Positions 31,647-62,165 of a stretch of DNA of 64,000 nucleotides are shown here, one piece after another. The translations under genes were made by a program, and so were the position numbers. Location: the NCBI GenBank assembly GCA_028130375.1, contig GCA_028130375.1_3658.1. The stretch is one strand, 5' to 3'. How positions within the stretch are numbered: the stretch's first letter is position 1; each line of letters opens with the position of its first letter. The notes beneath the pieces were generated by a model. That model saw only the letters and a program-made list of their open reading frames with translations. It had not been told where the DNA came from and made no database searches. The DNA is from a phage.

Positions 31647-31984
31647 GTTTGTGGAGAAATATAGTTAACTACGTGTGTGGCAATCCAACTCCTGAAGAGA
31701 AGGATGTTGTGATTCACGATTTTACTAAAAGATCCCGTGAAAAAGATCTACTGTTAACAAAGGTGACTGATAAAGACCCTGCAGCAGGGGACTGGGCAGG
31801 TTTTGCGTTTACATTGGACAAATACACCTTTAACAAAGGTGACTACCTTGTTGTGGATTTTAACGAAGACATTGAGGGTGCTGAACCTTACTATCAGACC
31901 CTTATTGTTGCAGGGTGTGTTAATCTATCTGCAGGTATGCACAGTTTGATTCTTTTTGAGCTTGACTCTGAAGACCTTGAGTAG
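31643..31984 (+). CDS. Hypothetical protein
   Basis: 113-aa ORF, ATGA overlap with helicase stop. Confidence 0.45.
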   Translation: MSLWRNIVNYVCGNPTPEEKDVVIHDFTKRSREKDLLLTKVTDKDPAAGDWAGFAFTLDKYTFNKGDYLVVDFNEDIEGAEPYYQTLIVAGCVNLSAGMHSLILFELDSEDLE

Positions 31985-32045
31985 TAAGATGTGAGTATAA
32001 AGGGGAGGCCTCCTCCCCACAAAAAACTAAGGAGAGCACCAAACG

Positions 32046-48279: not shown

Positions 48280-48589
48280 TACTTGAAAATTCCTGGCATA
48301 TCAAGTGTAAGGAGGATTTCTAAAATGGATTTCCTCCTTTTGATATTTCACCGGGTTAGATATTTTAAAATTCTTAGAAAATCAGAAAATGGATCGAAAA
48401 CTAAAATGGATTTTTCAGAGCAGGCGCGACAAACCGAATCACTCATCCTATCGTTTGCACCATATTCCAGTCCACCATTACAGATTTCCCGCACATGCTT
48501 ACATCCTTCTACTGGAACTTCCTCCACTTACCCTTGACCTTTTATGGTAATAATCTAACCACTATCTTGAGGTTGCGGTACAGCTTTCC

Positions 48590-48770
48590 GGGTACTCGAT
48601 CTGTTTTTCGTTTCAAAGATTGAATTTTCTTAAAATTTTTCTCGATAAATTTCTCAGTACTCGATCTGTTTTTCGTTTTCTGAATCGGATTTTCTGGAAA
48701 TCGTTCCGGAGCTCGACCTGAAATTTTTGGGAACGAAATCGATTTTTCGTTTTCAGAAATGGATTTTTAA
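48590..48770. repeat. AT-rich direct repeats (tactcgatctgtttttcgttt x2 plus degenerate copy)
   Basis: Exact 21-bp repeat at about 48591-48611 and 48655-48675; related cgatttttcgttttc near 48740; aaatggattt motif recurs 4 times in 48320-48760. Confidence 0.6.
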
Positions 48771-48881
48771 AATTTCTATATGGGAATATTTTATGGGATA
48801 CTGTTTTATAGGAAATTGTTACGGAGGGTAATTAGCACGCTAATTAAATTTATTAAATGCGAGGAGTTCTCATTTAGAATT

Positions 48882-48900
48882 TTGAATGATAATCATTCTC
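48882..48900. promoter_or_regulatory. Fur-box-like operator (15/19 match to GATAATGATAATCATTATC)
   Basis: ttgaatgataatcattctc. Confidence 0.45.
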
Positions 48901-49016
48901 GTTTGCAGAATAACGGGCACCCCCGGTGATTGTCTCCCGGCCCCTGTTGCCCCGGCTTGTTATTATAGTATCACACAGGACAAAGAAGGCAAGGATTTTT
49001 TGCATAAATTTTTAAA

Positions 49017-49035
49017 TGATAATGATAACCGTTCT
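49017..49035. promoter_or_regulatory. Fur-box-like operator (16/19 match)
   Basis: gataatgataaccgttctc; followed, like the first copy, by a GC-rich about 35-bp element. Confidence 0.45.
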
Positions 49036-49055
49036 CATTTTATGCAGCGCCCATC

Positions 49056-49090
49056 CCCGGTGGTTATCTCCCCCGTCACCGGTGCCTGCC
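49056..49090. repeat. GC-rich dispersed element (inverted copy at 58031-58066, partial copy at 48918-48945)
   Basis: ccggtggttatctcccccgtcaccggtgcctgccg versus reverse complement of 58031-58066 (about 31/35 identical). Confidence 0.55.
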
Positions 49091-49529
49091 GTCCTTTCGA
49101 TAGGTATATTGTGCCACCTGGCGGGGCCGCTGTCAACACCTTTCAAAAAAAATTATAACCAGGTGCGCCCACTGCCAGGACCTGGCGGGGCCAGTCTGGC
49201 AGGGGAGAGTGAAAGCTTGCAAACCTGGTAGGGCTATGCTATAGGGTAGGCAACAACTGGAGAGGAGGTACAAAAATGAAAGGTAATATGATCCCCTGGA
49301 AAATGTAGCGACTAATGACGCTGAGGCTATCGCCATGGTTGAAAAGGCTATGGCGGGAGCGTTGGAACATAAAGAAGAGTACGAAAAAATGGTGGTTAAC
49401 CTGGCGGGGGCGGCAGGTGGATTCTATCATAAAAATAATTTAAAATAGTCGTTGACAACAAGGTTAATCATGGTATTATTACCCTACAAGGTGAACAACA
49501 CCGCACTAACCAGTAAAGAGGATAAATTT

Positions 49530-49727
49530 ATGAACGCATACGGGATCAAAGTACGTCGCAACACTCGCCAGGTGGTCACCAATCAAGTGATTTGCCGGGT
49601 GGATGTAACCATCAACAACGGGCAAGGCCTTTATAAATTTCGTCGCGGTCATAGCTATACCCTGCAACAGCTTAATCGTTGCGCCCTGACAAAAGGTCAG
49701 ATCAACCACTGGTTTAATAAAAAATAA
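49530..49727 (+). CDS. Hypothetical small protein (first gene of small-gene cluster)
   Basis: ATG 49530 after aaagaggataaa; upstream TTGACA at 49463-49468. Confidence 0.35.
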   Translation: MNAYGIKVRRNTRQVVTNQVICRVDVTINNGQGLYKFRRGHSYTLQQLNRCALTKGQINHWFNKK

Positions 49728-49791
49728 GTATTGACATATAGTCCGACACCAAATACACTAAAAGCACAAAAGACACTAAGAGGATAAAATC

Positions 49792-50190
49792 ATGAAAACC
49801 ACTACCTTTAATTTTGATAATGCAGACTTTTCTTTTTCTGATGTCAAGAACTGCCGCCGTGATCGTGGATTTTACAAGGCTTATAATCTGGTGGGCCTGG
49901 ACGATGACAATAATTTGCACGAAGTAGCTGAGATCCGGTATTATGCCGCCGCCAGCGGGAACACTTACTACTGCGTTTTTTGGATACACGACAACAAGAA
50001 CAATAAGTACGGCTATACTGGCGGCAAGGCGAGCGGTCACGGTTATGATAAAGCTAACGCAGCACTTGAGAGCGCATTAAATGCTATGGGGATCACTGCC
50101 GACGGCTGGATCTACGAAGAAGAGTTTTTGTCGGCACTTGCTGACCACCTAGGCTATAAAAAGCACATTGTAACATGCGCCCACGAATAA
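49792..50190 (+). CDS. Hypothetical protein
   Basis: 132 aa; preceded by TTGACA..TACACT promoter and conserved UTR aagaggataaaatcATG. Confidence 0.5.
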   Translation: MKTTTFNFDNADFSFSDVKNCRRDRGFYKAYNLVGLDDDNNLHEVAEIRYYAAASGNTYYCVFWIHDNKNNKYGYTGGKASGHGYDKANAALESALNAMGITADGWIYEEEFLSALADHLGYKKHIVTCAHE

Positions 50191-50272
50191 AAATCATTGA
50201 CACGCTGCAAAATTTAAGTAAACTAGACACAAAAGGCGGGAATGTTTCCCGCCAGCACAAAGGAAAAAGATC

Positions 50273-50677
50273 ATGAATAAGAACGTACGCCGCATCATGA
50301 ACGAGTTGGCAAACGATGAAAAAATTATTGACATGCATTTGATCAACATTTGCCGCCGTTGTGTAACATATAACAACCGCGCCGCAAAAGCGCGTGAGAT
50401 GAACGCAAAAGGCACCTTAAAGCCATTCCAGGTGGTGGTAAAGGCCATTAAAGATGTAACTAATACGGCAAACCAGGTACAGGGGAACACCAACGAGAGT
50501 ACCAATATTGATCCAGCTTACATCATGAAACGGATCCGGACCTGCAAGAACAAAGAGCAAGTGTATAATGTCATAGACTGGTTGGATTCTATGGGCGATG
50601 TGGTTTACAATAGGTTTTCTGCAGCTATCGAGATCCAGCTTGACAGGTTGGACGGTAAAGTACTGAAAACTTACTAA
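50273..50677 (+). CDS. Hypothetical protein
   Basis: 134 aa; cassette TTGACA-16-TAAACT, hairpin ggcgggaatgtttcccgcc, SD, ATG. Confidence 0.5.
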   Translation: MNKNVRRIMNELANDEKIIDMHLINICRRCVTYNNRAAKAREMNAKGTLKPFQVVVKAIKDVTNTANQVQGNTNESTNIDPAYIMKRIRTCKNKEQVYNVIDWLDSMGDVVYNRFSAAIEIQLDRLDGKVLKTY

Positions 50678-50678
50678 G

Positions 50679-50725
50679 TTTATTTTTAGATGGCCTTGAC
50701 TTCAGGGCCATCAATAAAGTAAACT
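50679..50725 (+). repeat. Promoter-bearing stem-loop repeat, copy 1
   Basis: ttatttttagatggccttgacttcagggccatcaataaagtaaact; 7-bp stem gatggcc / ggccatc with TTGACT in the loop, TAAACT downstream. Confidence 0.65.
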
Positions 50726-50757
50726 AATCTCAACTAAGCGAAAAAGGGGGCTTTAAG

Positions 50758-50877
50758 ATGAGCACTACACGCCAATACACAAAGGTAACTATTATCGTTT
50801 GCGTTGTCGGTTACATCCTGGCGCAAATGTTAATGAGTAGCGCTAACAGTTTTGCAAAATTTTTCTTAAATTTTTAA
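50758..50877 (+). CDS. Tiny hydrophobic peptide (39 aa)
   Basis: Unlisted short ORF after the repeat; RBS aaaaaggggg; sequence MSTTRQYTKVTIIVCVVGYILAQMLMSSANSFAKFFLNF. Confidence 0.3.
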   Translation: MSTTRQYTKVTIIVCVVGYILAQMLMSSANSFAKFFLNF

Positions 50878-50956
50878 TTGACAAACTGACTTAGATCGAT
50901 ATACTTAAACACGTAAACGGGAAAACTTCCCAGAGCACACAAAAGGAGAAAACACC

Positions 50957-51298
50957 ATGACTACTATGACCGCCGCAGAAAAAGCTATGCAGATCGCCGC
51001 GCTGAAAAAACAGATCGCAGACCTTGAGAACAAGATCGATAACTTTGAAATCGACGAGGACAAGTACGACGAAAACTATGATGAATGGTTAGACGAGATC
51101 TACGGCGAAATTATGATCGGAAACATTTCTTTTCTTCCGTCGCGTATCCTCAAGGAGCTAGATCCTATCGCTTACCGCTGCGGATTTGGCGACTACATCG
51201 ACAGCCTGGATATTGAGGACGATGAAGAATACCAGGAACTACAGACAGAGTTAGAAGAAGCAAAAGAAGAGCTTGCGGAGCTGGAAGAAAACGAGTAA
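50957..51298 (+). CDS. Hypothetical acidic protein
   Basis: 113 aa, Asp/Glu-rich C-terminus; cassette TTGACA-16-TATACT + hairpin + aaaaggagaaaacaccATG. Confidence 0.5.
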   Translation: MTTMTAAEKAMQIAALKKQIADLENKIDNFEIDEDKYDENYDEWLDEIYGEIMIGNISFLPSRILKELDPIAYRCGFGDYIDSLDIEDDEEYQELQTELEEAKEELAELEENE

Positions 51299-51300
51299 GA

Positions 51301-51346
51301 TTATTTTTAGATGGCCTTGACTTCAGGGCCATCAATAAAGTAAACT
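51301..51346 (+). repeat. Promoter-bearing stem-loop repeat, copy 2
   Basis: Identical to copy 1 over about 46 bp, directly after the 51298 stop. Confidence 0.65.
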
Positions 51347-51387
51347 TTATACTGTTAACACTGAACTAATTCAGAGGAGTTAAAACC

Positions 51388-51633
51388 ATGGCAGCACTAA
51401 TCACCAAATATTATGCCCCTACCAACACCAAAAGCGCCCGTATCATGGTAAAAGGCTTCGGACGTAAAAAGGTTTACACCTGGGATTATGCCTTAGACAC
51501 GGAAGACAACTACACCAACGCGATGACCGATTTTATTAATGATCTGAACACGCGGATCTTGACAAATTATAAAATTACCGATATTGCCTATATAGGGGAA
51601 GGCGGGATCTGTTTTGTCGGTATCGTCAAATAA
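51388..51633 (+). CDS. Hypothetical protein
   Basis: 81 aa with RBS gaggag. Confidence 0.5.
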   Translation: MAALITKYYAPTNTKSARIMVKGFGRKKVYTWDYALDTEDNYTNAMTDFINDLNTRILTNYKITDIAYIGEGGICFVGIVK

Positions 51634-51709
51634 GCTGTTTTTTCGGTGGTCCTGGTAGCAGGGCCATCTATAAAGATAGTTTATCAACACAATGAAAGGA
51701 GAAAGTAAC

Positions 51710-52063
51710 ATGATCAGCGGGGCAAGTTTTATTATTGGCGCTATTGCTACGGCTTTAATTGTAAACAAGATCCAATCCAAAAACGAAAAAGAGAGCAACG
51801 CGCTTACAGAATACCCATTTTGGGTATTCAACGACAATGAAGACTACATTATCAAGTACAAGGATGAGAAAGGGGACCAGGTAACACCGAGACCGATCCC
51901 AGCTTACAAGATGCAAGAAACATTATACCGCTTAAAGGCTGGCGGCGCAAAAATCGTAGACTTTTGGGGATATGATTGCAAGGATCAGGAGACTATAAAA
52001 CGTCGTATCCGGGCGATTCAGGCAAATATTGAGATCAGTAAAGGGGGCGTTTATGAAAATTAA
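51710..52063 (+). CDS. Putative membrane protein
   Basis: ATG 51710 after aaaggagaaagtaac; N-terminal TM-like ISGASFIIGAIATALIV. Confidence 0.45.
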   Translation: MISGASFIIGAIATALIVNKIQSKNEKESNALTEYPFWVFNDNEDYIIKYKDEKGDQVTPRPIPAYKMQETLYRLKAGGAKIVDFWGYDCKDQETIKRRIRAIQANIEISKGGVYEN

Positions 52064-52250
52064 TTTCGAAAAAATTGTAAAGCGCCCCCACGATTCCGAA
52101 GAGCTGCCGGAACGCCGCCAGCGTAACAATAAACTGAATAAACCGAAAAGGTTCGGGAAGATCTGGAGAAATCACTATGATCGCAAATTACCGAGCCTGC
52201 TTTTGGAACGTGAACGACAGGCGGAACGATACCGCCACAAAGACAAATAG
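52053..52250 (+). CDS. Small highly basic protein
   Basis: About 65 aa rich in Arg/Lys (KRPHDSEELPERRQRNNKLNKPKRFGK); followed by a terminator hairpin at about 52268-52297. Confidence 0.4.
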   Translation: MKINFEKIVKRPHDSEELPERRQRNNKLNKPKRFGKIWRNHYDRKLPSLLLERERQAERYRHKDK

Positions 52251-52495
52251 CAACCAACGCCCCGCCATTGTGAGGGGCTTTTTATTTCTATCCCGCCGAT
52301 AGCGCCCCTGGTTGGCCCTACAAGCGCCATAAAGGCCCCTACCTATGCAATCCCCTTTCTTAACCTGAAAACAGCGTCTAGGGCCGTTTTATGGCGTTAA
52401 AAATATTATTGACAGTGATTCTATTTAAAGCTTGACACCTTGGGATAGTCCGGATATACTAACCACATCAAAGCAAGAAGGAAGGAGTAAACGCC

Positions 52496-52756
52496 ATGCG
52501 TAAATTAAAAAATTTTGATAAAGTCGATGTTGTCCTGAATAATTTTTACTACTGCAATAATAAAGCCGTTTGGTGGCGTGATAGTTCCACCGATAAAGTT
52601 AAAGCGCGCTTTCTCCAAGGGCACTGGCAAGGCCGTCCAGTGATTAAAATCCTGGGGCAATTGGTAGCGTTTAAAAATTGCCGCCGTGTTGATGACGTTG
52701 AAGAGATTCTAAACATTTTACGCCACAATAATTTAAAAAATAGTGTTGACAAGTAA
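52496..52756 (+). CDS. Hypothetical protein
   Basis: 86 aa; cassette TTGACA-17-TATACT upstream. Confidence 0.5.
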   Translation: MRKLKNFDKVDVVLNNFYYCNNKAVWWRDSSTDKVKARFLQGHWQGRPVIKILGQLVAFKNCRRVDDVEEILNILRHNNLKNSVDK

Positions 52757-52830
52757 GTCTCAATAAGTATACTTAAACACACAGGCGGGAAGTTTTCCCG
52801 CCACTAACAAAGAAAATAGGAGAAAATATC

Positions 52831-53454
52831 ATGACCACCGTTAACATTACTACAGGTTACAATTTATCTTTCGACGTGCTGACCGGCGAACAAAAAGAAA
52901 AAGCTGTTGAAATGGTCCGCGAAAGAGAAGAACACAGCGGGGATAACTTTTTTGCAGAAAGTGTAATTGAGTACTATAAAGAATATGTTTTTCCAGAGTA
53001 TGGCCTTGAAGATACCGAAATACATTGGTCCGGCTTTTGGTGTCAAGGCGACGGCGCATCAATTAGCGCTGAAAATGTAAACTTAGAAAAATTCTTGCGT
53101 AAGGTTAAAGCGCTTACAAAATTCCGCTTAATTAGACACTTGTTCGGCACAATGCATGATGGCGAACTGTCAGCCAGCGTTGAACGTATCCCGTTTAGCC
53201 ATTATCATCACGAAAACACAATAGGCGGGTGCATCGATACCAATTGGCTAGACCTGACCACCAAGCAAGAGGATAAAGTTGAAGAGCTGGAAGAGCTGAT
53301 CACCGAGACGGTACGGGAGTTATCCCGCAAGGTTTACGTAGACCTGGAGCAAGCCTATCTTGAACAATTCACCACCGAAAACCTGATCGGCCTTATCGAG
53401 GCCAATGATTGGCGGTTTGATGTGGATGAATATGGCGAGATGACTTTTTCATAA
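52831..53454 (+). CDS. Hypothetical protein
   Basis: 207 aa; cassette TTGACA-16-TATACT, hairpin ggcgggaagttttcccgcc, aaataggagaaaatatcATG. Confidence 0.55.
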   Translation: MTTVNITTGYNLSFDVLTGEQKEKAVEMVREREEHSGDNFFAESVIEYYKEYVFPEYGLEDTEIHWSGFWCQGDGASISAENVNLEKFLRKVKALTKFRLIRHLFGTMHDGELSASVERIPFSHYHHENTIGGCIDTNWLDLTTKQEDKVEELEELITETVRELSRKVYVDLEQAYLEQFTTENLIGLIEANDWRFDVDEYGEMTFS

Positions 53455-53542
53455 ATAAAGTGTTGCAATAACCTAAAAACCTGCTATATTAGAACTCAAG
53501 GGGCAAGAAGTTTGCCCCACACAAAACAAAGAGGAAAACATC

Positions 53543-53923
53543 ATGAAAAGCACCACTAAAGCCATTGACACCGTTATGTTTAACCTGGTTACCTTTCGCG
53601 AGGATATGAAAGATCTTCCACGTGAAACAGTGCGCGATCACATTGAAAACTATCGCAAACTAATCAAAGAGTTGCCTTTAAAACGTGACCAGTACGCGGC
53701 TAACGCTATGCTTAACGCTATGATCAAGAAAATGATCCAGTGTGATTTGACTTTAGCTTATGATTATGCAGGTGGTCGTTTTGCAGTATACAATCAGCCC
53801 GTGCCCGGTATGAGCACCACCGAAGAATTGCACGCGTTAAATCTGAAACAAGATGTATGGGATAACATGCCCCGCGTGGTGGTGTGGGCAGAAAGCGGAA
53901 AGATTTACGGCGATAATTTTTAA
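53543..53923 (+). CDS. Hypothetical protein
   Basis: 126 aa; upstream hairpin ggggcaagaagtttgcccc and aaagaggaaaacatcATG. Confidence 0.5.
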   Translation: MKSTTKAIDTVMFNLVTFREDMKDLPRETVRDHIENYRKLIKELPLKRDQYAANAMLNAMIKKMIQCDLTLAYDYAGGRFAVYNQPVPGMSTTEELHALNLKQDVWDNMPRVVVWAESGKIYGDNF

Positions 53924-53987
53924 TCAGGTAACAGGCGGCATATTTGCCGCCTTATTGTTAAACAGAACTGCAAAAGAGGTACATAGA

Positions 53988-54359
53988 ATGGAATTTATTA
54001 TTTTGGCTGTAGTAGTTGCCTTGTTCAACGCCTGGATAGCTGGCAAAATAGGTAGATCCGCTTTTCTATGGTTTGTTATATCTATTTTCCTGGGAGTGGT
54101 TGCAACCATTGTACTAGTTATCCTTGCAATTGTTGACAAGGATAATAATAAGAAGGGTAAAGTATTTTCCGACCTGTATGACGCCCAAACTTTTGTTAAC
54201 GCCTATTATAGTGATCTTCCGGTCTCCTTGCGCTGCAGCCTGGCGCAACAAGTTTTTGATGAGGCTAAAACCAGAGATCAAGCCCATGAGATATGTTTAA
54301 CTGAGGCGGATCGCCTATTTGAGAGGAATAGAAAATATGTGGGCCAACCGTTTAAATAA
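53988..54359 (+). CDS. Putative membrane protein (2 TM)
   Basis: ATG 53988 after aaagaggtacatagA; MEFIILAVVVALFNAWIAGKIG and FLWFVISIFLGVVATIVLVILAIV. Confidence 0.45.
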   Translation: MEFIILAVVVALFNAWIAGKIGRSAFLWFVISIFLGVVATIVLVILAIVDKDNNKKGKVFSDLYDAQTFVNAYYSDLPVSLRCSLAQQVFDEAKTRDQAHEICLTEADRLFERNRKYVGQPFK

Positions 54360-54582
54360 TGCCACGTTAATTAATCCCTTTAGTGAAGATTTGAAGCCAG
54401 CCGCCTGGCGTGACGGATTCAATAACGAACGCTTTATTTTCAGGCCTGATCTTGAGGAATTTTATAACAATGGATCGAACAACAGCGGAGATAATTTTTC
54501 TTGTGGTGTGTGTCGTGATGGTACTCCTGGGGGCCATTGTAAACCACGTCACTACTACCAGGAGGAAAGGGGGAGACGATGA
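54337..54582 (+). CDS. Hypothetical small protein
   Basis: ATG 54337 after gagaggaa; overlaps an alternative-frame ORF, so it is uncertain. Confidence 0.3.
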   Translation: MWANRLNNATLINPFSEDLKPAAWRDGFNNERFIFRPDLEEFYNNGSNNSGDNFSCGVCRDGTPGGHCKPRHYYQEERGRR

Positions 54583-54837
54583 CAACCAAGGATAAGCCAT
54601 GCACCGATAAGGTGCGCCGCGTTATGGTATGGCTTGAGATTATCGCCCTTGAAATATTGCTAGGAGTAGGGATGTACTTTATCGCTGTAAGTAACTAGGA
54701 ACGGCCCCCGATCATGGGGGCCTATCTTTTTAAAAAATTTTTCTTCCGTGGTGTTGCAATCCGGTCCGGAATGTGGATAATAACAATCAACGGGGAGCTA
54801 ATCCCCACCACCACAAAAACCAGAAAGGAGAAACAAA

Positions 54838-55038
54838 ATGAGCAACAATATCCGCGTTATTAACTTCAAAAAAGAAGAAAAAATTGCCGTGCTGATTGAC
54901 GGTCAAGAAATCTTCAAGGGCGACTATGAAGATCATCAAACGGCGATTAGTATCACTCGCGTGATTGGTTACCATAATTTTTACCCCCAAGGCGCTGAGG
55001 CAGCGGTTAAACGAATCAAAGAGATTGTAGGCCTGTAA
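54838..55038 (+). CDS. Hypothetical small protein
   Basis: 66 aa; promoter TTGCAA..GATAAT, hairpin ggggagctaatcccc, aaaggagaaacaaaATG. Confidence 0.5.
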   Translation: MSNNIRVINFKKEEKIAVLIDGQEIFKGDYEDHQTAISITRVIGYHNFYPQGAEAAVKRIKEIVGL

Positions 55039-55041
55039 AAT

Positions 55042-55085
55042 TTATTTTTAGATGGCCTTGACTCCAGGGCCATCAATAAAGTAAA
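55042..55085 (+). repeat. Promoter-bearing stem-loop repeat, copy 3
   Basis: Same element with one substitution in the loop (ttgactcc vs ttgacttc). Confidence 0.65.
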
Positions 55086-55131
55086 TTTAAACCCTGTTAA
55101 AATACCACACAGTTAACAAGGAGTGATAGAC

Positions 55132-55431
55132 ATGTTTATCCAGGCTAATAATCTTTATTTCTTTGATGGTCAGATCGTAGATGGTGTGGAAGTGGAGATC
55201 ACCGGGTGCCCTGGCGGTCAGGCTATGACTTTTCGGAATAATGCCTTTGATGATTCTCATATCGTTATGAGAATGGAAGTTACGAAGCTGGACGACAAGA
55301 AAACACTTATTGACTATTCTGTGAAAGATCATCCAGACTACCGCATGATCCATGGCGATTTGTGCATTGTTGACCGTGACAAGGTGGGCGGCATTGTGAT
55401 CGCTATTGTGAACGATGTTTTCTCAAACTAA
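55132..55431 (+). CDS. Hypothetical protein
   Basis: ATG 55132 after aaggag. Confidence 0.5.
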   Translation: MFIQANNLYFFDGQIVDGVEVEITGCPGGQAMTFRNNAFDDSHIVMRMEVTKLDDKKTLIDYSVKDHPDYRMIHGDLCIVDRDKVGGIVIAIVNDVFSN

Positions 55432-55448
55432 TTTCAGCAGGCGATTTT

Positions 55449-55799
55449 ATGAAAGTCAAACTATATTACCTTAATGAGCTTAACCCCCTTGCCCAGGTCC
55501 GCGCCCTAGCTAATACCTTGATTTGTGAGAAATCTGTATATTGTGTTGAGCTTAACGCCATGCGTGAACGTCTCAAAGGTGGTTACTTTGACATCCATGC
55601 TGCAATCAACGGCCTGAATATAGAATTTATACGCTTACGTAACAGCCGCCGGAATCTGGCAAGAATGGAACAAGATCCGGCCCACCTTCGTAAGCTGGTT
55701 ATTGAAAATCATCTGATGTTTAATGCCGAGGGTGATTATTACCATTTTCACCGCAAACGCTGGTACCGTGGCGGCAATACAGGCAAGAATGCAAAATAA
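55449..55799 (+). CDS. Hypothetical protein
   Basis: 116 aa; followed by terminator hairpin aggctatgc-aat-cgcatagcct at about 55836-55866. Confidence 0.5.
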   Translation: MKVKLYYLNELNPLAQVRALANTLICEKSVYCVELNAMRERLKGGYFDIHAAINGLNIEFIRLRNSRRNLARMEQDPAHLRKLVIENHLMFNAEGDYYHFHRKRWYRGGNTGKNAK

Positions 55800-56001
55800 G
55801 GCCCCAGGCAGGGCCTACAGCGACCTAAACACTAGCAGGCTATGCAATCGCATAGCCTTTATTGTTTTGACGTTACAACGGCCCTAAGGTGCTTAAAAAA
55901 AAATTTTAAATAAAGGCTTGCATCAAGTCGAACAATATGGATAATAAGAGGTGTAGGGAGGTGATGCCTCCAATCATTAACAAAAACAGGAGTTAAAGAA
56001 T

Positions 56002-56286
56002 ATGGCTATTGTTACCGCTGGCGATGTAGTAAAAATGGAAGCGAAGTATTTAAAAGCTGGTATGCATATCATCCGCAATGATCTTGAACTGGTCCTCACT
56101 ATGGTTGATTATAACCCTGGTCAAGATTATCCAAGTGTTGACTACTTTTTTGAGTATGTCGATGAAGAGCTAAAAGAGGATGAGGCCTACTGCGGAGAAT
56201 TCTGCAACTACTTTTGCCCTGACGAGGTTGTAAAAGTTATCTACCAACCTGGCGTACCTTTCCCGCTACACGCTATCAATAAATAA
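56002..56286 (+). CDS. Hypothetical protein
   Basis: 94 aa; promoter TTGCAT-17-(G)ATAAT at about 55919-55950. Confidence 0.5.
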   Translation: MAIVTAGDVVKMEAKYLKAGMHIIRNDLELVLTMVDYNPGQDYPSVDYFFEYVDEELKEDEAYCGEFCNYFCPDEVVKVIYQPGVPFPLHAINK

Positions 56287-56341
56287 ACCCGGCGGGGCCG
56301 AAAAGGCCCCCAATTATGAAAATAAAGAGAGGTAAATCATC

Positions 56342-56575
56342 ATGATGGAACAAATTAAACGCACTGAGGCTATTAATGGCAATGTGATCTATTTTGTCAG
56401 CAAAAACGAAAAAGGCGTACCCTATGCGGCGGTAACAGTACAACCTGACGGCGATTATTGGTTTACTGTGTACGGCGCTTATTCTTTTGGGCGTCCAGTG
56501 CATGATAAAATTTTGAAAGTAGCGAACCCTACCGGGAAGAATATCACAGCAGAAAAATTTTTTGAAAATAGTTGA
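56342..56575 (+). CDS. Hypothetical protein
   Basis: 77 aa, RBS agagaggtaaa. Confidence 0.5.
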   Translation: MMEQIKRTEAINGNVIYFVSKNEKGVPYAAVTVQPDGDYWFTVYGAYSFGRPVHDKILKVANPTGKNITAEKFFENS

Positions 56576-56650
56576 CATGACCATATAAGACTGTAATATA
56601 TAAATCAAAGGGGGCAACAAGCCCCACCAACCACAAAGAGGATAAAAATC

Positions 56651-56830
56651 ATGGCTATTATTGCAAAGACTGAGATCGTAGGCTTAGATTCTATTCTCCT
56701 CGCATATGAGGAAGCTATAGAAATGTATGTGGTTTCCTATGGTGAGTATATCCGTGAATATAAATCTATTGATCTGGCTTTTGAATGTTATATTCGCCAG
56801 GTTAATAAAGCGTACGATGATTATCGTTAA
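56651..56830 (+). CDS. Small hypothetical protein (59 aa)
   Basis: Unlisted short ORF with full cassette TTGACA..TAATAT, hairpin, acaaagaggataaaaatcATG. Confidence 0.35.
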   Translation: MAIIAKTEIVGLDSILLAYEEAIEMYVVSYGEYIREYKSIDLAFECYIRQVNKAYDDYR

Positions 56831-57035
56831 AATAGTTTGACAACAAACAACCATCTAACAAAGCATAATACATAAGGTGGTAGAATGATCCGCCACCCGG
56901 AACAAAGAAGAGGTAAACACCATGAAACAAAAATTAATTGATGCTGTGATCCTGGTTATTGCCCTGGGTATTGGCCTGATTGCAACCATGGCTAATATGA
57001 TCTTGTCTTCCAACGGTATCTGGTGAGGTTGGCAA

Positions 57036-57251
57036 ATGATCACTAACAAAACAGGCAAAACAGAATTTTTACGCAACTTACAGATCGGCAAGCCTGAGAT
57101 CTGGTATTGCACTAAAACACCACGTGACGAAATGAAAGACTTCACCGCCACGTTGCAACGGGTAAAGATATCCATCACGCAGAAAAAGGCCTTATTAGTG
57201 GTGGAAGGTGAGATCCCCCAAACCGTTGTTATAGTTGAGCGTACAGCATAG
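57036..57251 (+). CDS. Hypothetical protein
   Basis: 71-aa ORF. Confidence 0.4.
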   Translation: MITNKTGKTEFLRNLQIGKPEIWYCTKTPRDEMKDFTATLQRVKISITQKKALLVVEGEIPQTVVIVERTA

Positions 57252-57342
57252 TTTAATTTATACCGATACCCGAAAATTAACCAACAAAGCATAAACAGGC
57301 GGTTACCGCCGCCTTAAACGTAGCAGAAAGAGGATAGACACA

Positions 57343-57627
57343 ATGAAAAAGATGATCGCAGTGGTTGCCCTGGTTGTTGGACTTAATGCGCCTGTAATGG
57401 CTAAAGAGCTGGCAAAAGAGGTTAATCTAACGGATATTCATGCCGTCAATAAAATCGGGGTTACTTATCGCTTATGCCTTGCCGCTAAAACTTTCCAGGA
57501 CGGCACGACAGAGTACTACGGATTCGAGGGTATCCGGTGCGGTGAGCTTGCTCGCGACCTTAAGGAAGATCCAGACCTGGAAGATCTGCCCATCACCGTA
57601 AACGGTAAAGCTTACGTAAACCGTTAA
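57343..57627 (+). CDS. Small secreted/periplasmic protein (signal peptide)
   Basis: 94 aa; MKKMIAVVALVVGLNAPVMAKE looks like a Sec signal; RBS agaaagagga. Confidence 0.5.
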   Translation: MKKMIAVVALVVGLNAPVMAKELAKEVNLTDIHAVNKIGVTYRLCLAAKTFQDGTTEYYGFEGIRCGELARDLKEDPDLEDLPITVNGKAYVNR

Positions 57628-57779
57628 CCATGAGAAAGATAATCATCACCTTGGGGATTGTGGCGGGATCGCTGGCGCTCTTTCCCCTTATGGTTAGGTA
57701 TGTGCTGATCAGTATTGTCCTGGTAGTCAGTGATCTATTGGAAACGGTTGGCACCTTGTTTTAAAGAGCGATAAAAAAA

Positions 57780-57971
57780 ATGAATGTCGAACAAGTTAGA
57801 AAGGTATTGGCGGTACTGCGTTATCATAATCATAGAAAGGTCATAGACGATCCTGATTATGTCGATTCAAACCTGGAAGAGGATACACTACAAGCCATAA
57901 GTAACATGCAAGAATTGCTAAAGCGCATGACAGAGAAAAACCGACCGGACTACATAGGCGAAAAAATATAA
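57780..57971 (+). CDS. Hypothetical small protein
   Basis: 63 aa; followed by hairpin aaaacagg..cctgtttt + T-run at about 57986-58015. Confidence 0.4.
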   Translation: MNVEQVRKVLAVLRYHNHRKVIDDPDYVDSNLEEDTLQAISNMQELLKRMTEKNRPDYIGEKI

Positions 57972-58030
57972 TATTTATAAACTACAAAACAGGGCTTGCA
58001 ATGGTCCTGTTTTTTGTTATACTTATTCCA

Positions 58031-58066
58031 CGGCAGGCACCTGGCGACGGGGGAGACAATCACCGG
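58031..58066. repeat. GC-rich dispersed element, inverted copy
   Basis: Reverse complement matches 49056-49090. Confidence 0.55.
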
Positions 58067-58181
58067 GCCTGCCTGTCATATAAGAACTATAAAAACCGTT
58101 GACATCTGCCATGGGGTGGGGTAACATTTATCTTGAAGGGGCAAAAGTGCCCACACAACAACCAGGAGAGAGGAAAACATT

Positions 58182-58454
58182 ATGTCAAGCTGGATTAATC
58201 AAGAAGTCGAATCACGTTTTAATGCTATATGGGATCTCATCGAAAAAGAGGACGGAACATCAAGCCCCTACCTCAACAATTTGGAATTCCATTTTGTGGA
58301 AGCGATGAACGCAGAACATGATCACGAAGGTGGCGCGGATGAGTTCGCTAAAGGTTATGGCTTTAACAATGCCAACGAAATGATCGAGGCGGTAGTACTC
58401 CAGGCTGAGGAAGATTATCAATTAAAAACGCTTGAATTCTGCCGCCGTAAGTAA
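58182..58454 (+). CDS. Hypothetical acidic protein
   Basis: 90 aa; promoter TTGACA-17-TAACAT at about 58086-58114. Confidence 0.5.
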   Translation: MSSWINQEVESRFNAIWDLIEKEDGTSSPYLNNLEFHFVEAMNAEHDHEGGADEFAKGYGFNNANEMIEAVVLQAEEDYQLKTLEFCRRK

Positions 58455-58514
58455 TAAGATAATGACACGGGCCAAAAGGCCCACTAATCAGAACCACACA
58501 AAGAGAGAAAGAAA

Positions 58515-58733
58515 ATGACAACCCGTAAAATTAAAGTTGTTTGCATTGAATCGACTGGGGGCGCTTTTGTAGTTGGTCAGGAATATAATGCGGTTTTAAT
58601 GGGTACGGATTGGAAGGTTAAAGGCCTTAATGGTTACGAGTACGGCACTACTTGCGGCTTGCGTGGTCGAATCGGATACGTGAGTTTAGACAATAAAGAA
58701 AAATTTGTTTTCGACACCCTTGTGAGTAAATAG
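58515..58733 (+). CDS. Hypothetical small protein
   Basis: 72-aa ORF. Confidence 0.45.
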   Translation: MTTRKIKVVCIESTGGAFVVGQEYNAVLMGTDWKVKGLNGYEYGTTCGLRGRIGYVSLDNKEKFVFDTLVSK

Positions 58734-58810
58734 CATGAATTGCTAAAGACTGATCTGCGAACTGCTGTATTATCAACTAATCAAAACGAACCACATAAAG
58801 AGTAAACATC

Positions 58811-59074
58811 ATGAAACGTCTGGATCAGCTTAAATTAGTTCAGTACATGGCCTACAGAATTCTTGAAGTCCAAAAAGGTAGCAAAAAAGAGGTTTGCGAG
58901 AAAGCTTATAAGATCTTTACCCGCAAAAAAGATGACTGGATGCTGCGCCAGACCAAAAAGGCTGACATCTTGGGGTACCTGGAAGAAGAGATCCGCCTTG
59001 AAGAGCAAGAAGAGATCCGCCGTAGTGAGGCAGATTATCAGGCAGCTTGGGAAAGCTGGATGAGTAACAAATAA
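58811..59074 (+). CDS. Hypothetical protein
   Basis: 87-aa ORF. Confidence 0.5.
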   Translation: MKRLDQLKLVQYMAYRILEVQKGSKKEVCEKAYKIFTRKKDDWMLRQTKKADILGYLEEEIRLEEQEEIRRSEADYQAAWESWMSNK

Positions 59075-59217
59075 TACAACAAGTTACGGTCAGGGGGTAA
59101 TAAAGCCCCTTGATCACATAAAAATTATGCTATCCCTGGTTGACAGGGATCGGCAGTTTTGCTATATTCTTTTTTGAAGGGAAGTTGTAAGAAAATTAAC
59201 TAAGAGGTAAAAACACC

Positions 59218-59637
59218 ATGAACATTAAATCTAATAATCCGGCATATAGCTTTGATAACGCTTTTTGTCACGGTCCGGCGGCGAAAGGATTCGAAATCGA
59301 TGGTAAACTAATTATTGTCAATGTTGACGGGGAAGAGGTTGCAGTATATCCGGTGGCAGACGTAAAAAGTCGTTTACAATGCCGCATGGATGTTACCGCC
59401 TACCAGCTTGATCCGGTCCGCATAGTTGCCCTGGTCCTGGAAGGAGAAATTAAAGCCATGCACCATAGCAACAGGTTTATTGGTGACGCTCAGGATAATA
59501 TGAAAGTATGCCGCCATAAAGTTAATGAAGTGCTTAAAGAGTACGGCTATAAAGATCTTATGATCAAACGTGAGGAAAAATTCCGCTACCGTAACGACCT
59601 GGCAAATCGGATTTTTGAAATATACGAATCATTATAA
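59218..59637 (+). CDS. Hypothetical protein (last gene of cluster)
   Basis: 139 aa; promoter TTGACA-17-TATATT at about 59141-59169; terminator hairpin aaggggcttaggcccctt + T-run at 59655-59680. Confidence 0.5.
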   Translation: MNIKSNNPAYSFDNAFCHGPAAKGFEIDGKLIIVNVDGEEVAVYPVADVKSRLQCRMDVTAYQLDPVRIVALVLEGEIKAMHHSNRFIGDAQDNMKVCRHKVNEVLKEYGYKDLMIKREEKFRYRNDLANRIFEIYESL

Positions 59638-60298
59638 TTTTTAACTGAATTATCAAGGGGCTTAGGCCCCTTTCTTTTTGTCTGCTCTTCCCCCCTACCA
59701 TAAACGGCCCTACCTGGCAAGTGGAATAATTGACGAGCCATCAATCCCACACACTGTACAAATATACATGTAAAATAGCTATTGCATAACCTTTCATTGT
59801 GTGGTAGCGGTGCTATTTTTTACCCGTTTTCCTTCCAAAATTGCACGTAATGCAGTTATTGCACAAAATTTAACCTGATGCACATCTTCAATATCTTGTC
59901 AACAACTAAAAATCTTTATAAGTCATACACTTACACAAACCAAAGAGCGTGTTCTACGTGAAAAATCGAGTATAACTATAGCCGCCAGATCTCAGAATTT
60001 ACGTACGCTCGCCATTCTATAGCCTGCTAAGCATTTATTCCAACCATAGAATAACGGAATAGTCAATACCTGCATAAAATAATTATTCGTGTAAACTGCA
60101 TAACATAAATCAGCTTAGGTGTCAACATTTTTCGTAAACAGTCTGAAATTATCACGGTGAGTTATCATAAACAGAGAAATCTTTAGTCGTCTAATGTTTA
60201 CTGTACGTTACTATACTAACTGAAATCATTAGATGACTAATAGAAAGATAAGAAATAATTAACAATACAATTATTTTATCTGTAACAATAAGGCAACT

Positions 60299-60530
60299 AT
60301 GCAAACGAATGGCATGGCGCGACGGAGTCGCGACATAATATAAAAGCAGTAACCATCACCCCCGTGATAGTTTGTCTGCAAACTATTAATCAGATCATAG
60401 TTGCCTTGTATTTAGTTAATCATGACATAACAAGCAAGGCAACTATAGATCTTCTAATAGTTGCCCTGCTTTTATATTATGTCATAGATTATTAACTTGC
60501 TAATAGTTATCATGCAAACGAATGGCATGG
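60299..60530. repeat. Nested inverted/direct repeat block (GGCAACTAT arms; 20-bp direct repeat atgcaaacgaatggcatggc)
   Basis: ggcaactat at about 60292 and 60437 with reverse complement atagttgcc at about 60399 and 60458; exact 20-bp direct repeat at 60299-60318 and 60511-60530. Confidence 0.6.
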
Positions 60531-60533
60531 CTT

Positions 60534-60608
60534 ATCATTTCCATGTAAACTGTCAAGGTGTAAACTATCCAGGCGTAAACAGTCTATGCGGGAACAATCT
60601 ATACGTGA
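60534..60608. repeat. Iteron-like tandem array (5 copies, period about 15 bp, core GTAAAC-W-GTC)
   Basis: gtaaactgtcaagg / gtaaactatccagg / gtaaacagtctatg / gaacaatctatacg / gtgaacagtgaaac; further GTAAACAG copies near 60100, 60136, 60907, 61676. Confidence 0.6.
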
Positions 60609-61254
60609 ACAGTGAAACATGAAATAATAACAGTCGTTATTGTTCCATATTGTGTCATAGTATGTCACCATTATGTCTAAAGTGTCTAAGGTGTCAGACA
60701 AGTTTTTCTCCTCTTTGTCAAGTGCTGCATGAAAAATTTACAATCTTGTATGGTAGCATTTTTGCGGCCATGTTTACATTCAGCGATGTATGTATAAGCC
60801 TTGTTGTGTGGGCGTTTAGACGTCTAGACGGTTGGAAGTCCACAGGTCAATATCTAATCTATCGGCTGCTAACTATATCCCACACAAATAGTAATAAATA
60901 TAATTGTTATATGCGTAAACAGTAACTCATGTTATCAATCCCTGTATGTATCGCCAGTGGTGCGCATAATGGGTATTATGTTAAATTGCCCGTAATGATA
61001 ACAGTTCTCACAATGATAGGTATTCTCATTCATCCACACAAAATAGGTTGCAAATGTTGTGCCACTGTGTGAACGGCCTGGCCTATTAATTTCTCTCACT
61101 GCCTCGATATTTGAGAATTGTTATAAGAATGAGAAGTATTCCCATTCCGTCCGCCTGGCAGCGCTCCTGTAGGTCCTGCAAGGACTCTAGCTGAAAGCTA
61201 GACCCTTCGGGCCTCCCTGTAGGTCAGGTCAAAATCGTGGCAGAACTGAGCCTG

Positions 61255-61470
61255 TTCAGATATTTCTGGCTGACTCTTCAGGTCTGTGTGGGAAAAGCCA
61301 ACCTCTCCGGCGGGGCAGGGGGAGGTCAATTAAAAAATTTACGTGGTGTATGAAGCGCTCTTCAGGTAAGGCAGGTATTATGGGATGAAACCCTCTTCAG
61401 GCAATGATATTTGTGGGTGTGATATTTGCTGGAAAGCCAGATATGACGGGACTCCCGGCGGGGCAGGGGT
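61255..61470. repeat. GC-rich direct repeats (CTCTTCAGG several copies; cYccggcggggcagggg x2)
   Basis: ctcttcagg at about 61275, 61349, 61393 (again near 61805); ccggcggggcagggg at 61307-61321 and 61455-61469. Confidence 0.55.
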
Positions 61471-62165
61471 AGTACAGACAGGGAAAATATGAGAATGTAG
61501 TTGGGGAAATTGATCAGACAGGTAGAGTATGGAATATGTTACAAGTATGTTAAATATGGAGGTTGAATATCTGTAGGATTTGTGTGTAAAATCAAAGACT
61601 TAAGGGGTGTTGTGGTATTTTCTATAAATAATTCAAGTTTAATAGGCAATATTTGTCTCTATCCGCTTTGTGTGGTAAACAGATTCAGATTAGATTGGTT
61701 TACAAGTGTATACATAATATACAAATTAAAGATACAAGAAACCCCCCTCCCCCCTTCGGCTACCATTCACCTTTTCCTCTGACTGGTACTTAAACACTTA
61801 TTCAGACTCTTCAGGTTATCACCCATATATCATATGGCAGTGACTGGTGTCCTCCGGCCCCTCTTTCGTCACCCGTCCGCTTCGCCATGCTAATGCCATA
61901 GCTAATGGTTCGGTTGTTCACCCTGTTCACTCAGGTGTATCTCTATACCCCTTCAAACCGAAGAGAACAGAAAACCCGAATTACTCGGTAAAAGAAAAGA
62001 GAAGAACTTAATTTTATCAGGATAGGCAAGAATGTCAAGGCATGACTGCTCACTAAACAAGCAAACAGTCATGTGTGGGAGGTAAGTGATTGTGGTGGTA
62101 GGAAATTTAGTTGAAAGATGTGTTATAGGTGCTTCCAGCACTTTAGCCGGGCAGCTAATTGTGTG

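Follow-up and report, generated by a model that had tools for sequence, protein, structure and literature searches.

PeSL-like promoter and hairpin cassettes in a small-gene region of an rV5-like coliphage, as read from sequence

Why does a large virulent coliphage carry some 10 kb of small genes, many with a promoter, a hairpin and a ribosome-binding site (RBS) of their own? We asked this of positions 49450-59640 (the region) of a 64,000-nt stretch of phage DNA (the window; contig GCA_028130375.1_3658.1 of assembly GCA_028130375.1); coordinates are those of the window unless a phage is named. Sequence matching identifies the window as Vequintavirus, an rV5-like myovirus of E. coli. An earlier note on this DNA had described about 27 small genes, most of them under a near-identical unit of sigma70 promoter, 5' hairpin and Shine-Dalgarno (SD) sequence, and had proposed modular shuffling of a co-regulated host-takeover or antidefense set. 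The observation is real and statistically solid, but it was overstated in the words “most” and “near-identical.” There are two separate cassette types, not one, and architecture of this type is already known from the PeSLs of T4-like phages; the earlier note overlooked both points. In our reading, which we hold at a probability of about 0.6, the region is an early accessory (“hyperplastic”) arm made up of small modules, many of them equipped with portable early-expression cassettes that double as recombination substrates. Judged by their sequence, the cassettes extend PeSL-like elements beyond the T4-like phages, with a stem-loop located mostly in the 5' untranslated region (UTR).

Promoters were scored against 500 dinucleotide shuffles, and a score of at least 10/12 was taken as strong. 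The plus strand of the region holds 10 strong promoters and the minus strand holds none, compared with 1.97 ± 1.45 in the shuffles. For the hexamer TTGACA, the counts are 17 on the plus strand and 4 on the minus strand (expected, 3.7); 11 of the 17 plus-strand copies are intergenic or located at a stop codon. A strict joint scan for a promoter followed by a GC-rich hairpin 7 to 14 nt past the -10 element returned 8 instances in the region versus 0.30 ± 0.53 in shuffled sequence (maximum, 3), and one genuine copy, at 31962, in the remaining 54 kb of the window. Enrichment of the upstream motifs over shuffled sequence had been set beforehand as a test, and it was found in strand-specific form. 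The 20 nt 5' of the intergenic TTGACA boxes are 55 to 95% A+T (at least 65% in 10 of 11), in tracts that can contain the stop codon of the upstream gene, as in cgtTAAaatagtTTGACA and aatTTTTAAtTGACA.

In the units that we call type A, a TTGACA-like -35 element is followed by a spacer of 16 to 17 nt, a TAnnnT -10 element, a gap of 8 to 13 nt (mode, 10 nt, in the nine cassettes of the region), a G...C hairpin of 5 to 8 bp and a CA- or A-rich leader of 19 to 32 nt that carries the SD sequence AAGAGG or AAGGAG and ends at the ATG. Full units precede 9 of the 29 genes of the region (first nine lines below), and degenerate copies precede two more. Where rV5 (DQ832317) has an annotated promoter at the site, its name is given.

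50197 to 50272, plus strand: type A before gene 50273-50677; TTGACA-16-TAAACT, 10 nt, hairpin GGCGGGAA-TGT-TTCCCGCC (50235-50253), leader AGCACAAAGGAAAAAGATC.
50878 to 50956, plus strand: type A before gene 50957-51298; TTGACA-16-TATACT, 13 nt, hairpin GGGAA-AAC-TTCCC (50919-50931); rV5 P192.
52746 to 52830, plus strand: type A before the 207-aa gene 52831-53454; TTGACA-16-TATACT, 10 nt, hairpin GGCGGGAA-GTT-TTCCCGCC (52784-52802).
53463 to 53542, plus strand: type A before gene 53543-53923; TTGCAA-16-TATATT, 9 nt, hairpin GGGGCAA-GAAGT-TTGCCCC (53500-53518).
54754 to 54837, plus strand: type A before gene 54838-55038; TTGCAA-16-GATAAT, 10 nt, hairpin GGGGA-GCTAA-TCCCC (54792-54806).
55918 to 56001, plus strand: type A with a weaker -35 (TTGCAT) before gene 56002-56286; GATAAT, 11 nt, hairpin GGAGG-TGATG-CCTCC (55957-55971).
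56572 to 56650, plus strand: type A before the 59-aa gene 56651-56830; TTGACA-16-TAATAT, 11 nt, hairpin GGGGC-AACAA-GCCCC (56611-56625).
58099 to 58181, plus strand: type A before gene 58182-58454; TTGACA-17-TAACAT, 11 nt, hairpin GGGCA-AAAG-TGCCC (58139-58152); rV5 P168.
58432 to 58514, plus strand: type A before the polymorphic 72-aa gene 58515-58733; TTGAAT-17-TAAGAT, 8 nt, hairpin GGGCC-AAAA-GGCCC (58469-58482).
56837 to 56921, plus strand: degenerate type A, together with variable slot B (see below), before the 34-aa gene 56922-57026; AAAATAGTTTGACAACA ... CATAAT ... hairpin GGTGG-N9-CCGCC.
57285 to 57342, plus strand: degenerate type A before the signal-peptide gene 57343-57627; AACAAAGCATAAAC, hairpin AGGCGG-TTACCG-CCGCCT (57297-57314), no convincing -35.
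31962 to 32045, plus strand: type A outside the region, before the 441-aa DNA methylase gene 32046-33371; TTGACT-17-TAAGAT, 11 nt, GGGGAGG-CCT-CCTCCCC, CA-rich leader.

The hairpins that had been quoted at 50235, 52785 and 53498 exist, at 50235, 52784 and 53500. Most genes, however, lack the full architecture claimed for them: beyond the nine full and two degenerate type-A units, there are three type-B units (plus one degenerate) and four promoters without a hairpin. Near-identity describes the 51-nt type-B repeat (92 to 98%) and not the type-A cassettes, which are 72 to 78% identical to one another over 32 to 53 nt. Outside the region, the window has just one full type-A cassette, the unit at 31962, and the product of its gene is a DNA methylase (PF01555, E=4e-42); this single case fits the idea that the cassette marks genes needed right after injection. 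In EmilHeitz, the same methylase is annotated in a shorter form, with a start 291 nt further in.

Type B is a 51-nt repeat, TAAGnTTATTTTTAGATGGCCTTGACTTCAGGGCCATCAATAAAGTAAACT, in which the hairpin GATGGCC/GGCCATC carries the -35 element in its loop; the spacer is AATAAAG and has no T-tract. The type is confined to Vequintavirus (121 phage records, almost all with three copies), and across ten genomes its 46-nt core is almost invariant except at two loop positions. In 5 of the 10 genomes, copies 1 and 2 agree in the variable loop dinucleotide, which is only suggestive of concerted evolution. The remaining promoter units lack a hairpin, apart from the element at 57986, and some 9 to 10 genes have no promoter of their own and lie close behind a neighboring gene.

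50675 to 50757, plus strand: type-B copy 1, before the 39-aa membrane gene 50758-50877; GATGGCC..GGCCATC with -35 TTGACT in the loop, then TAAACT.
51296 to 51387, plus strand: type-B copy 2, before gene 51388-51633; 98% identical to copy 1.
55037 to 55131, plus strand: type-B copy 3, before gene 55132-55431; 92% identical, -10 TAAATT.
51631 to 51709, plus strand: degenerate type B (69%), before gene 51710-52063.
49452 to 49529, plus strand: promoter only, before gene 49530-49727; TTGACA-16-TATTAT, TG-extended; rV5 P195B.
49731 to 49791, plus strand: promoter only, before gene 49792-50190; TTGACA-17-TACACT, CA-rich leader; rV5 P195A.
52409 to 52495, plus strand: promoter only, before gene 52496-52756; tandem TTGACA boxes (52409, 52432), of which TTGACA-17-TATACT is rV5 P186.
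59140 to 59217, plus strand: promoter only, before the 139-aa gene 59218-59637; TTGACA-17-TATATT, TG-extended; rV5 P164.
57986 to 58028, plus strand: terminator-like hairpin plus promoter at the right edge of slot D; AAAACAGG..CCTGTTTT, -35 TTGCAA in the loop, T-tract spacer, -10 TATACT.

The nearest gene start lies more than 150 nt past the 57986-58028 element, and the next gene is served by the promoter at 58099.

The translation initiation regions (TIRs) of the 29 genes also differ from those of the 41 other plus-strand genes of the window, as had been proposed. A+C content at -35 to -15 is 0.68 in region genes and 0.53 in the others (p=2e-4), and A content at -8 to -1 is 0.50 versus 0.32 (p=7.5e-5). 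The CA motif is found in 11/29 versus 3/41 genes (p=0.002) and GGAGAC in 1/29 versus 8/41. The consensus TIR of the cassette genes reads ..AaAAGgGgaAAAcAtCATGAaa.

Comparison of eight cassettes in up to eleven relatives revealed what is held constant. Variable columns numbered 0/48 in the -35, 6/48 in the -10, 24/130 in the spacer, 10/96 in the stem and 16/32 in the loop, so that loops were fivefold more variable than stems (Fisher p=7.6e-6). Nearly every relative's variant retains the hairpin, paired G/C insertions included. The 53500 hairpin, for example, exists in seven sequence variants among relatives, all of which form a hairpin; in AlexBoehm, one arm is longer by a G and the other by a C, and ECP26 has a differently paired 9-bp version with three G·U pairs. 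Two ev168/Murica variants of the 56611 hairpin are weakened (-3.8 and -7.0 kcal/mol). Among 18 paralogous hairpins from four phages, there are 12 distinct basal stems, and 97.8% of positions are paired, compared with 69.7 ± 3.7% when 3' arms are permuted; the basal pair is G-C in 18/18. The GGCGGGAA-NNN-TTCCCGCC subfamily recurs across several genes and genera. To judge from these comparisons, the conserved property is pairing rather than any single sequence. Since a perfect inverted repeat is the same on both strands, it is the variants paired only through G·U that indicate a function in the plus-strand RNA. For the same reason, we dropped the G-rich 5' arm as proof of the relevant strand.

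To place the hairpins on the transcripts, start sites were set 7 nt past the -10 element (the “+7 from the -10” rule), ±2 nt. The type-A hairpin then begins 2 to 7 unpaired nt from the predicted 5' end, with folding free energies of -5.5 to -14.6 kcal/mol. The predicted probability that the stretch from the SD sequence to the ATG is unpaired is 0.73 to 0.93 in 9 of 10 cassettes and 0.51 at 56002, and the leader is otherwise predicted to be unpaired. No T-run follows any of the nine type-A hairpins (0 to 3 T residues in the first 10 nt of A/C-rich sequence), and they are therefore not canonical intrinsic terminators. Searches for known RNAs gave no tRNA or tmRNA and no Rfam family near significance; RNAalifold applied to a MAFFT alignment of 27 cassettes returned no structure, as stems of differing length were misaligned. 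Two known kinds of RNA element were considered and set aside. Lambda nut/boxB or HK022 put RNA does not match hairpins whose loops are 3 to 9 nt long and unconserved in sequence, with half of the loop columns variable and no Rfam match, and the stems are far too short for RNase III sites.

Alignment of eleven Vequintavirus loci showed gene-sized presence or absence at five slots.

55449 to 55799, plus strand: slot A, a 116-aa gene; missing from rV5 and phita32, found in 81 phage records.
About 56846 to 56927: slot B, empty in the window; a 246-nt gene in ev168, Murica and AlexBoehm, and two or three tandem promoter-hairpin-TIR-gene modules in EmilHeitz and phita32.
57630 to 57764, plus strand: slot C, a 44-aa membrane gene; absent from Murica.
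57972 to 58012: slot D; a 312-nt gene is present here in four relatives.
58515 to 58733, plus strand: slot E, the 72-aa gene; absent from five relatives.

Insertions at slot B begin exactly after the AAAATAGTTTGACAACA promoter or duplicate a 22-nt TIR, and each inserted gene has its own cassette. At slot E, the leader ACTAATCAGAACCACACAAAGAG stands before the gene and ACTAATCAAAACGAACCACATAAAGAG after it, and the ACTAATCAGAACCACACAAAGAG leader recurs at 58776-58810; the five relatives without the gene have one chimeric copy of the flanking repeat ACTAATCA..AACCACA.AAAGAG, with a 36-nt overlap in the leader/TIR. ECP26 lacks the segment between type-B copies 1 and 2 (about 50726-51286), i.e., the 39-aa and 113-aa genes; a single hybrid copy of the 51-nt repeat remains, flanked on the left as copy 1 is and on the right as copy 2 is (60-nt overlap). 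The crossover thus lies inside a repeat in three events, which involve the 51-nt repeat, the shared leader/TIR and the AAAATAGTTTGACAACA promoter. Overall, 14 of 16 breakpoints are intergenic or within 10 nt of a gene end, compared with 28.5% of positions (p=1.5e-6). Together, the five variable slots, the position of the breakpoints and the three crossovers within cassette homology bear out the modular gene shuffling proposed earlier. An apparent replacement at 52648-52797 in typing phage 14 was discarded; it is a run of N, i.e., an assembly gap.

The elements also differ in how widely they are distributed: the 72-aa gene is found in 42 phage records (18 at ≥99% identity), the pair of 39-aa and 113-aa genes in 115 and the 207-aa gene in 118. 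The deposited genome of rV5_ev146 (LR699804) lacks 50259-50770, 52200-58058 (19 genes) and 59111-59656, with 10 to 18 nt of microhomology at each junction, and the missing genes appear, from this one sequence, to be dispensable; the genome is 4.5 to 6 kb shorter than those of its siblings. At slot A, rV5 (locus 8945-9040, compared with 55425-55800 of the window) retains the last 11 nt of the gene (ATGCAAAATAA), which leave a 3-codon ORF (open reading frame) ahead of the same hairpin, in the manner of a footprint of gene-precise deletion.

Exchange is not confined to the genus. Single genes are common to the window and to Stephanstirmvirinae at 76 to 94% nucleotide identity, with unrelated flanks; 56639-56832, for instance, which runs from 12 nt 5' of the ATG to 2 nt past the stop codon, is 93% identical in Justusliebigvirus JohannJBalmer. 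Phapecoctavirus Schickermooser matches six segments of the window in permuted order. The modules inserted at slot B of EmilHeitz (locus 11310-12000) are about 90% identical to Schickermooser modules, with their order swapped, and the overlaps at the junctions, 32 and 63 nt, are the cassettes. This arrangement points, at the level of sequence comparison, to a recent exchange between two phage subfamilies. In Schickermooser itself (MK373788, 141090-150912), 13 of 28 small genes have a more uniform cassette, TAAGAT-GTATCACGTA-GGGCGGCAATGGTGCCGCTC-ACAAC...ATG. Read by eye, the distance of 8 to 13 nt between the -10 element and the hairpin recurs in 3 EmilHeitz modules, 4 Justusliebigvirus cassettes and 13 Phapecoctavirus cassettes.

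These results can be drawn together as a sequence of events. Host sigma70 RNA polymerase would initiate at the near-consensus promoters, each preceded by an A/T-rich tract with an upstream stop codon. A type-A transcript is predicted to start about 2 to 7 nt ahead of the 5- to 8-bp GC hairpin, which would place the hairpin at the extreme 5' end of the mRNA, and the unstructured CA/A-rich leader is predicted to leave the SD sequence (AAGAGG/AAGGAG) and ATG open. The hairpin could then shield the 5' end from decay of the RppH/RNase E type, keep sequence further upstream from interfering with the ribosome site and perhaps attenuate read-through out of the preceding unit. The type-B and 57986 hairpins, which enclose the -35 element, might link the end of a unit with the beginning of its successor. 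Finally, the cassettes are dispersed direct repeats of 20 to 60 nt, and recombination between them, as the genome comparisons indicate, deletes, inserts, replaces and reorders single genes within Vequintavirus and between Vequintavirus and Phapecoctavirus/Justusliebigvirus. The fixed register between the -10 element and the hairpin speaks for a role of the hairpin in the transcript initiated at that promoter. We infer protection of the 5' end because 5'-terminal stem-loops stabilize mRNAs in the E. coli ompA 5' UTR and in the T7 phi10 leader; there, as here, a hairpin lies a few nucleotides from the 5' end (a predicted end, in our case), with an unstructured leader and then a strong SD sequence behind it, whereas the predicted 2- to 7-nt tails here may sometimes exceed what such stabilizers tolerate. 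Co-regulated early expression is plausible on sequence grounds because the sigma70 promoters are conserved and six of them are already annotated in rV5.

The closest known system is that of the PeSLs (promoter-early stem-loops), described for the T4-like phages RB49/phi1, PST/T4 and nt-1/KVP40 (Arbiol et al. 2010, PMC2839356; Comeau et al. 2014, PMC4122927). In a PeSL, an A/T-rich tract that includes the stop codon of the preceding gene leads into a sigma70 promoter and an SD sequence with ATG, and a polyG/polyC stem-loop occupies one of five positions; the promoter and attenuator activities of RB49 PeSLs have been demonstrated experimentally (PMC2839356). PeSLs concentrate among ORFans, mediate insertions and deletions and form mini-circles (PMC2839356; PMC4122927). 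The cassettes in the window have the same layout, a CA-rich leader, a G-tract/C-tract stem-loop, a setting in an ORFan-rich variable region and crossovers of insertions and deletions inside the element, and they share with RB49 PeSLs the motif AAAA(T)AGTTG(T)TGACA / AAAA(A/T)AGTTGTTGACA. Every PeSL feature that can be checked in sequence was found except the usual position of the stem-loop. In RB49, stem-loops lie mostly between the -35 and -10 elements or over the -10, the downstream position is one of five subclasses, and only RB49p207 resembles type A; here, nine hairpins lie 8 to 13 nt past the -10 element, into the 5' UTR, and three enclose the -35. The present phage also differs in belonging to Vequintavirus and not to Straboviridae, in having the second, far more uniform 51-nt type around the -35, and in that its cassettes are known from sequence alone. 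A full-text literature search did not find PeSLs in rV5-like phages.

Within rV5, the depositors annotated six promoters here as sigma70-type (P195B, P195A, P192, P186, P168 and P164) and omitted equally good ones at 50197, 52746 and 56572; the rV5 paper (PMC3606486) does not mention a 5' hairpin, a shared leader, the 51-nt repeat, PeSLs or cassette-bounded variation. What is new is therefore the presence of PeSL-like cassettes in Vequintavirinae and Stephanstirmvirinae, with placement in the 5' UTR as the main twist, while the principle and the six rV5 promoters were known. A further relative is the promoter-coupled terminator of bacteria, in which, according to Fletcher et al. (bioRxiv 2026, 10.64898/2026.08.19.745784), the DNA of the stem-loop supplies the -35, the T-tract serves as the spacer and the -10 follows directly. 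By sequence, the element at 57986-58028 has exactly the layout given there, whereas type B has its -35 in the loop but no T-tract, and in type A the hairpin comes after the promoter and not before it.

Several points weigh against our reading. The full cassette is present on only 9 to 11 of the 29 genes. The literature searched contained no 5'-end or 3'-end mapping for rV5-like phages, and with 5 to 7 unpaired nt, some of the hairpins might fail to block 5'-end-dependent decay. Selection against broken genes would by itself place surviving breakpoints at gene borders, so that only three events, those in which the overlapping homology is the cassette itself, directly support cassette-mediated exchange; the borders of slots A and C coincide with genes but not with cassettes. 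Moreover, the stem-loop of RB49 PeSLs is usually inside the promoter, and that of PeSL211/210, GGGGATC-ACGT-ATCCCC, has no U-tract and nevertheless reduced downstream lacZ expression as strongly as rrnB T1 (PMC2839356). A terminator or attenuator role could therefore apply here as well, the 5'-UTR position being incidental. This is the substance of the original PeSL model of composite promoter-terminators, in which the hairpins act mainly on upstream transcripts as terminators, attenuators or 3'-end stabilizers. Murica annotators placed terminators at the type-B copies, and the 57986-58028 element, with its true T-tract, has the layout of a promoter-coupled terminator. This model, however, permits any hairpin position, as the five RB49 subclasses illustrate, whereas the hairpins here are fixed 8 to 13 nt past the -10, as they are, by eye, in some 20 cassettes of three other phages. 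In addition, a T-run is missing from the A/C-rich sequence after all nine type-A hairpins, and a consensus scan already places canonical terminator-like sites at 53933, 54703, 55837, 57986 and 59655, in or beside the region. We regard a main action on upstream transcripts as possible, though on the unlikely side.

The palindromes could instead be operators in double-stranded DNA, spanning about +3 to +25, at which a dimeric repressor from the phage or the host turns off the early promoters when later transcription takes over. A site just past the start is typical of repressors, the GGCGGGAA-NNN-TTCCCGCC sequence is conserved at 50235 and 52784 and in EmilHeitz inserts, Justusliebigvirus and Phapecoctavirus, and terminator palindromes can double as transcription factor sites (noted by Fletcher et al.). 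An operator would not be expected to tolerate at least 12 stem sequences among 18 hairpins, with complementarity alone conserved and loops and stem lengths varying freely, and the G·U-only pairing of the 56880 hairpin (GGTGG/CCGCC) and of the ECP26 variant at 53500 works in plus-strand RNA but not in a DNA palindrome; repressor binding is accordingly improbable as the main function. We consider it more improbable still that the hairpins terminate antisense transcription from the convergent downstream unit, for which the T-rich tail would be the one that follows on the minus strand. The same scan does list 52802-52784, 50253-50235 and 56625-56611 as minus-strand terminator-like sites, and between genes 163 and 164 the rV5 authors had expected a bidirectional terminator but saw none (PMC3606486). 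But the minus-strand tails are interrupted (TGTGTGTTTA, TTTTGTGTCT) and merely mirror the A-rich -10/+1 region, no minus-strand promoter in the region reaches 10/12, and the convergent unit lies beyond the terminator at 59655 and 2.4 kb of DNA free of genes. There remains the view that no cassette exists, only ordinary independent early promoters and unrelated look-alike hairpins; sigma70-like promoters do occur across the whole plus strand of the window, and the type-A units are no closer than 72 to 78% to one another. Given the joint scan (8 versus 0.30 expected), the fixed spacing, the shared leaders, the clear repeat families and the crossovers within them, we find this view scarcely credible.

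Returning to portable early-expression cassettes, a bolder version is that the promoter, the hairpin from +3 and the CA-rich leader form a shared “docking sequence” through which Krischvirus RB49, Vequintavirinae and Stephanstirmvirinae (Phapecoctavirus and Justusliebigvirus) trade single early genes by short-homology recombination. We offer this tentatively and would not count on it. If true, it would be an integrase-free gene-cassette system among otherwise unrelated virulent coliphages, in which the same 60 to 90 nt gives strong immediate expression, a protected mRNA 5' end and the next exchange site. The hairpin itself might be a recombination hot spot, e.g., through template switching at a stalled fork. 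Confirmation of the cassettes as such would make PeSL-type units a general means for large virulent coliphages to express and exchange accessory early genes, and not a peculiarity of T4-like phages. The cassette signature would locate fast-evolving accessory genes in rV5-like, phAPEC8-like and phi92-like phages, several of which are therapy candidates; for engineering, the cassettes mark naturally tolerated insertion sites and offer compact, strong expression units. The fixed position of the hairpin at the transcript start is likewise a testable case of 5'-end protection in phage early mRNAs.

The region holds 29 genes of 34 to 207 aa, somewhat more than first counted and, as first described, all on the plus strand; intergenic DNA makes up 22% of it. 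All 29 products match PHROG families (E values of 1e-23 to 1e-95), and they are therefore conserved phage genes and not chance ORFs, but the families are all of unknown function. Seven genes have a hydrophobic segment or signal peptide (starts at 50758, 51710, 53988, 54579, 56922, 57343 and 57630), in keeping with the several membrane or signal-peptide products noted before. The only Pfam match is that of the following gene.

52053 to 52250, plus strand: 65-aa gene; PF08200 Phage_1_1 (T7 gp1.1), E=1.8e-11, a family itself uncharacterized.

No sequence relatives in the PDB were found for the three region proteins searched. The model of the 207-aa protein is confident (predicted local distance difference test [pLDDT], 86; predicted template modeling score [pTM], 0.79) and has no significant structural neighbor. 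The labels “DNA translocase,” “putative holin” and “Rel homology domain” attached to relatives were rejected as unsupported by Pfam. In phage accessory or hyperplastic regions, many genes are antidefense genes (Silas et al., bioRxiv 2023, 10.1101/2023.04.06.535777), and the present cluster is similar in consisting of small, nonessential, horizontally exchanged genes with fast turnover; it differs in that no gene here can be assigned to antidefense. By analogy with such regions, host takeover or antidefense is a reasonable but hypothetical label; 28 of the 29 products lack an assignable function, and the exception is the gp1.1 homologue.

In its genomic setting, the region corresponds to ORF196-ORF164 of rV5, on the minus strand of DQ832317. 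The rV5 paper places genes 196-164 in transcription unit “10-1-238-164” (Kropinski et al. 2013, PMC3606486) and reports 33 sigma70-type promoters in the genome and a “non-coding” box beside gene 164 (PMC3606486). In the window, the region is preceded on its 5' side by tail-fiber genes, by a block on the minus strand that includes an anti-sigma factor and, after it, by a long plus-strand arm, in which rIIA/B, helicase, methyltransferases, primase/helicase, DNA polymerase and small genes lead up to the cassette region. Of the 234 phage records that match the region, 79, nearly all of them Vequintavirus, cover at least 80% of it at about 92 to 96% identity. The matches include 23 “Campylobacter phage” records (MG0656xx, host C. 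jejuni), about 94% identical among those listed, which are probably coliphage contaminants or carry mislabeled hosts.

Just 5' of the region, the gene-poor stretch 48290-49300 divides small genes with an AGGAGAC-type RBS (40 to 48 kb) from the cassette-bearing genes and contains three repeats of about 57 nt at a spacing of 65 to 74 nt (48585-48780), together with two 19-nt GGGGGAGACAATCACCGGG motifs. On the other side, some 2.4 kb (59700-62100) have no annotated genes in rV5 (the “non-coding” box) or EmilHeitz; this DNA contains perfect 18-nt inverted repeats (60332/60466), several deposited genomes start inside it, and genome ends, a packaging site or an origin may lie there. The GGGGGAGACAATCACCGGG motif occurs three times in all, at 48922-48940 (minus strand), 49056-49074 (minus strand) and 58049-58067 (plus strand), compared with 0.01 expected. 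Each copy is part of a longer imperfect palindrome, which could be a protein-binding site or a structured RNA. The one at 58030-58075 folds at -25.9 kcal/mol (z=-3.1) and is located between the 57986 terminator/promoter and the 58099 promoter, and the 5.9-kb deletion of rV5_ev146 ends within it.

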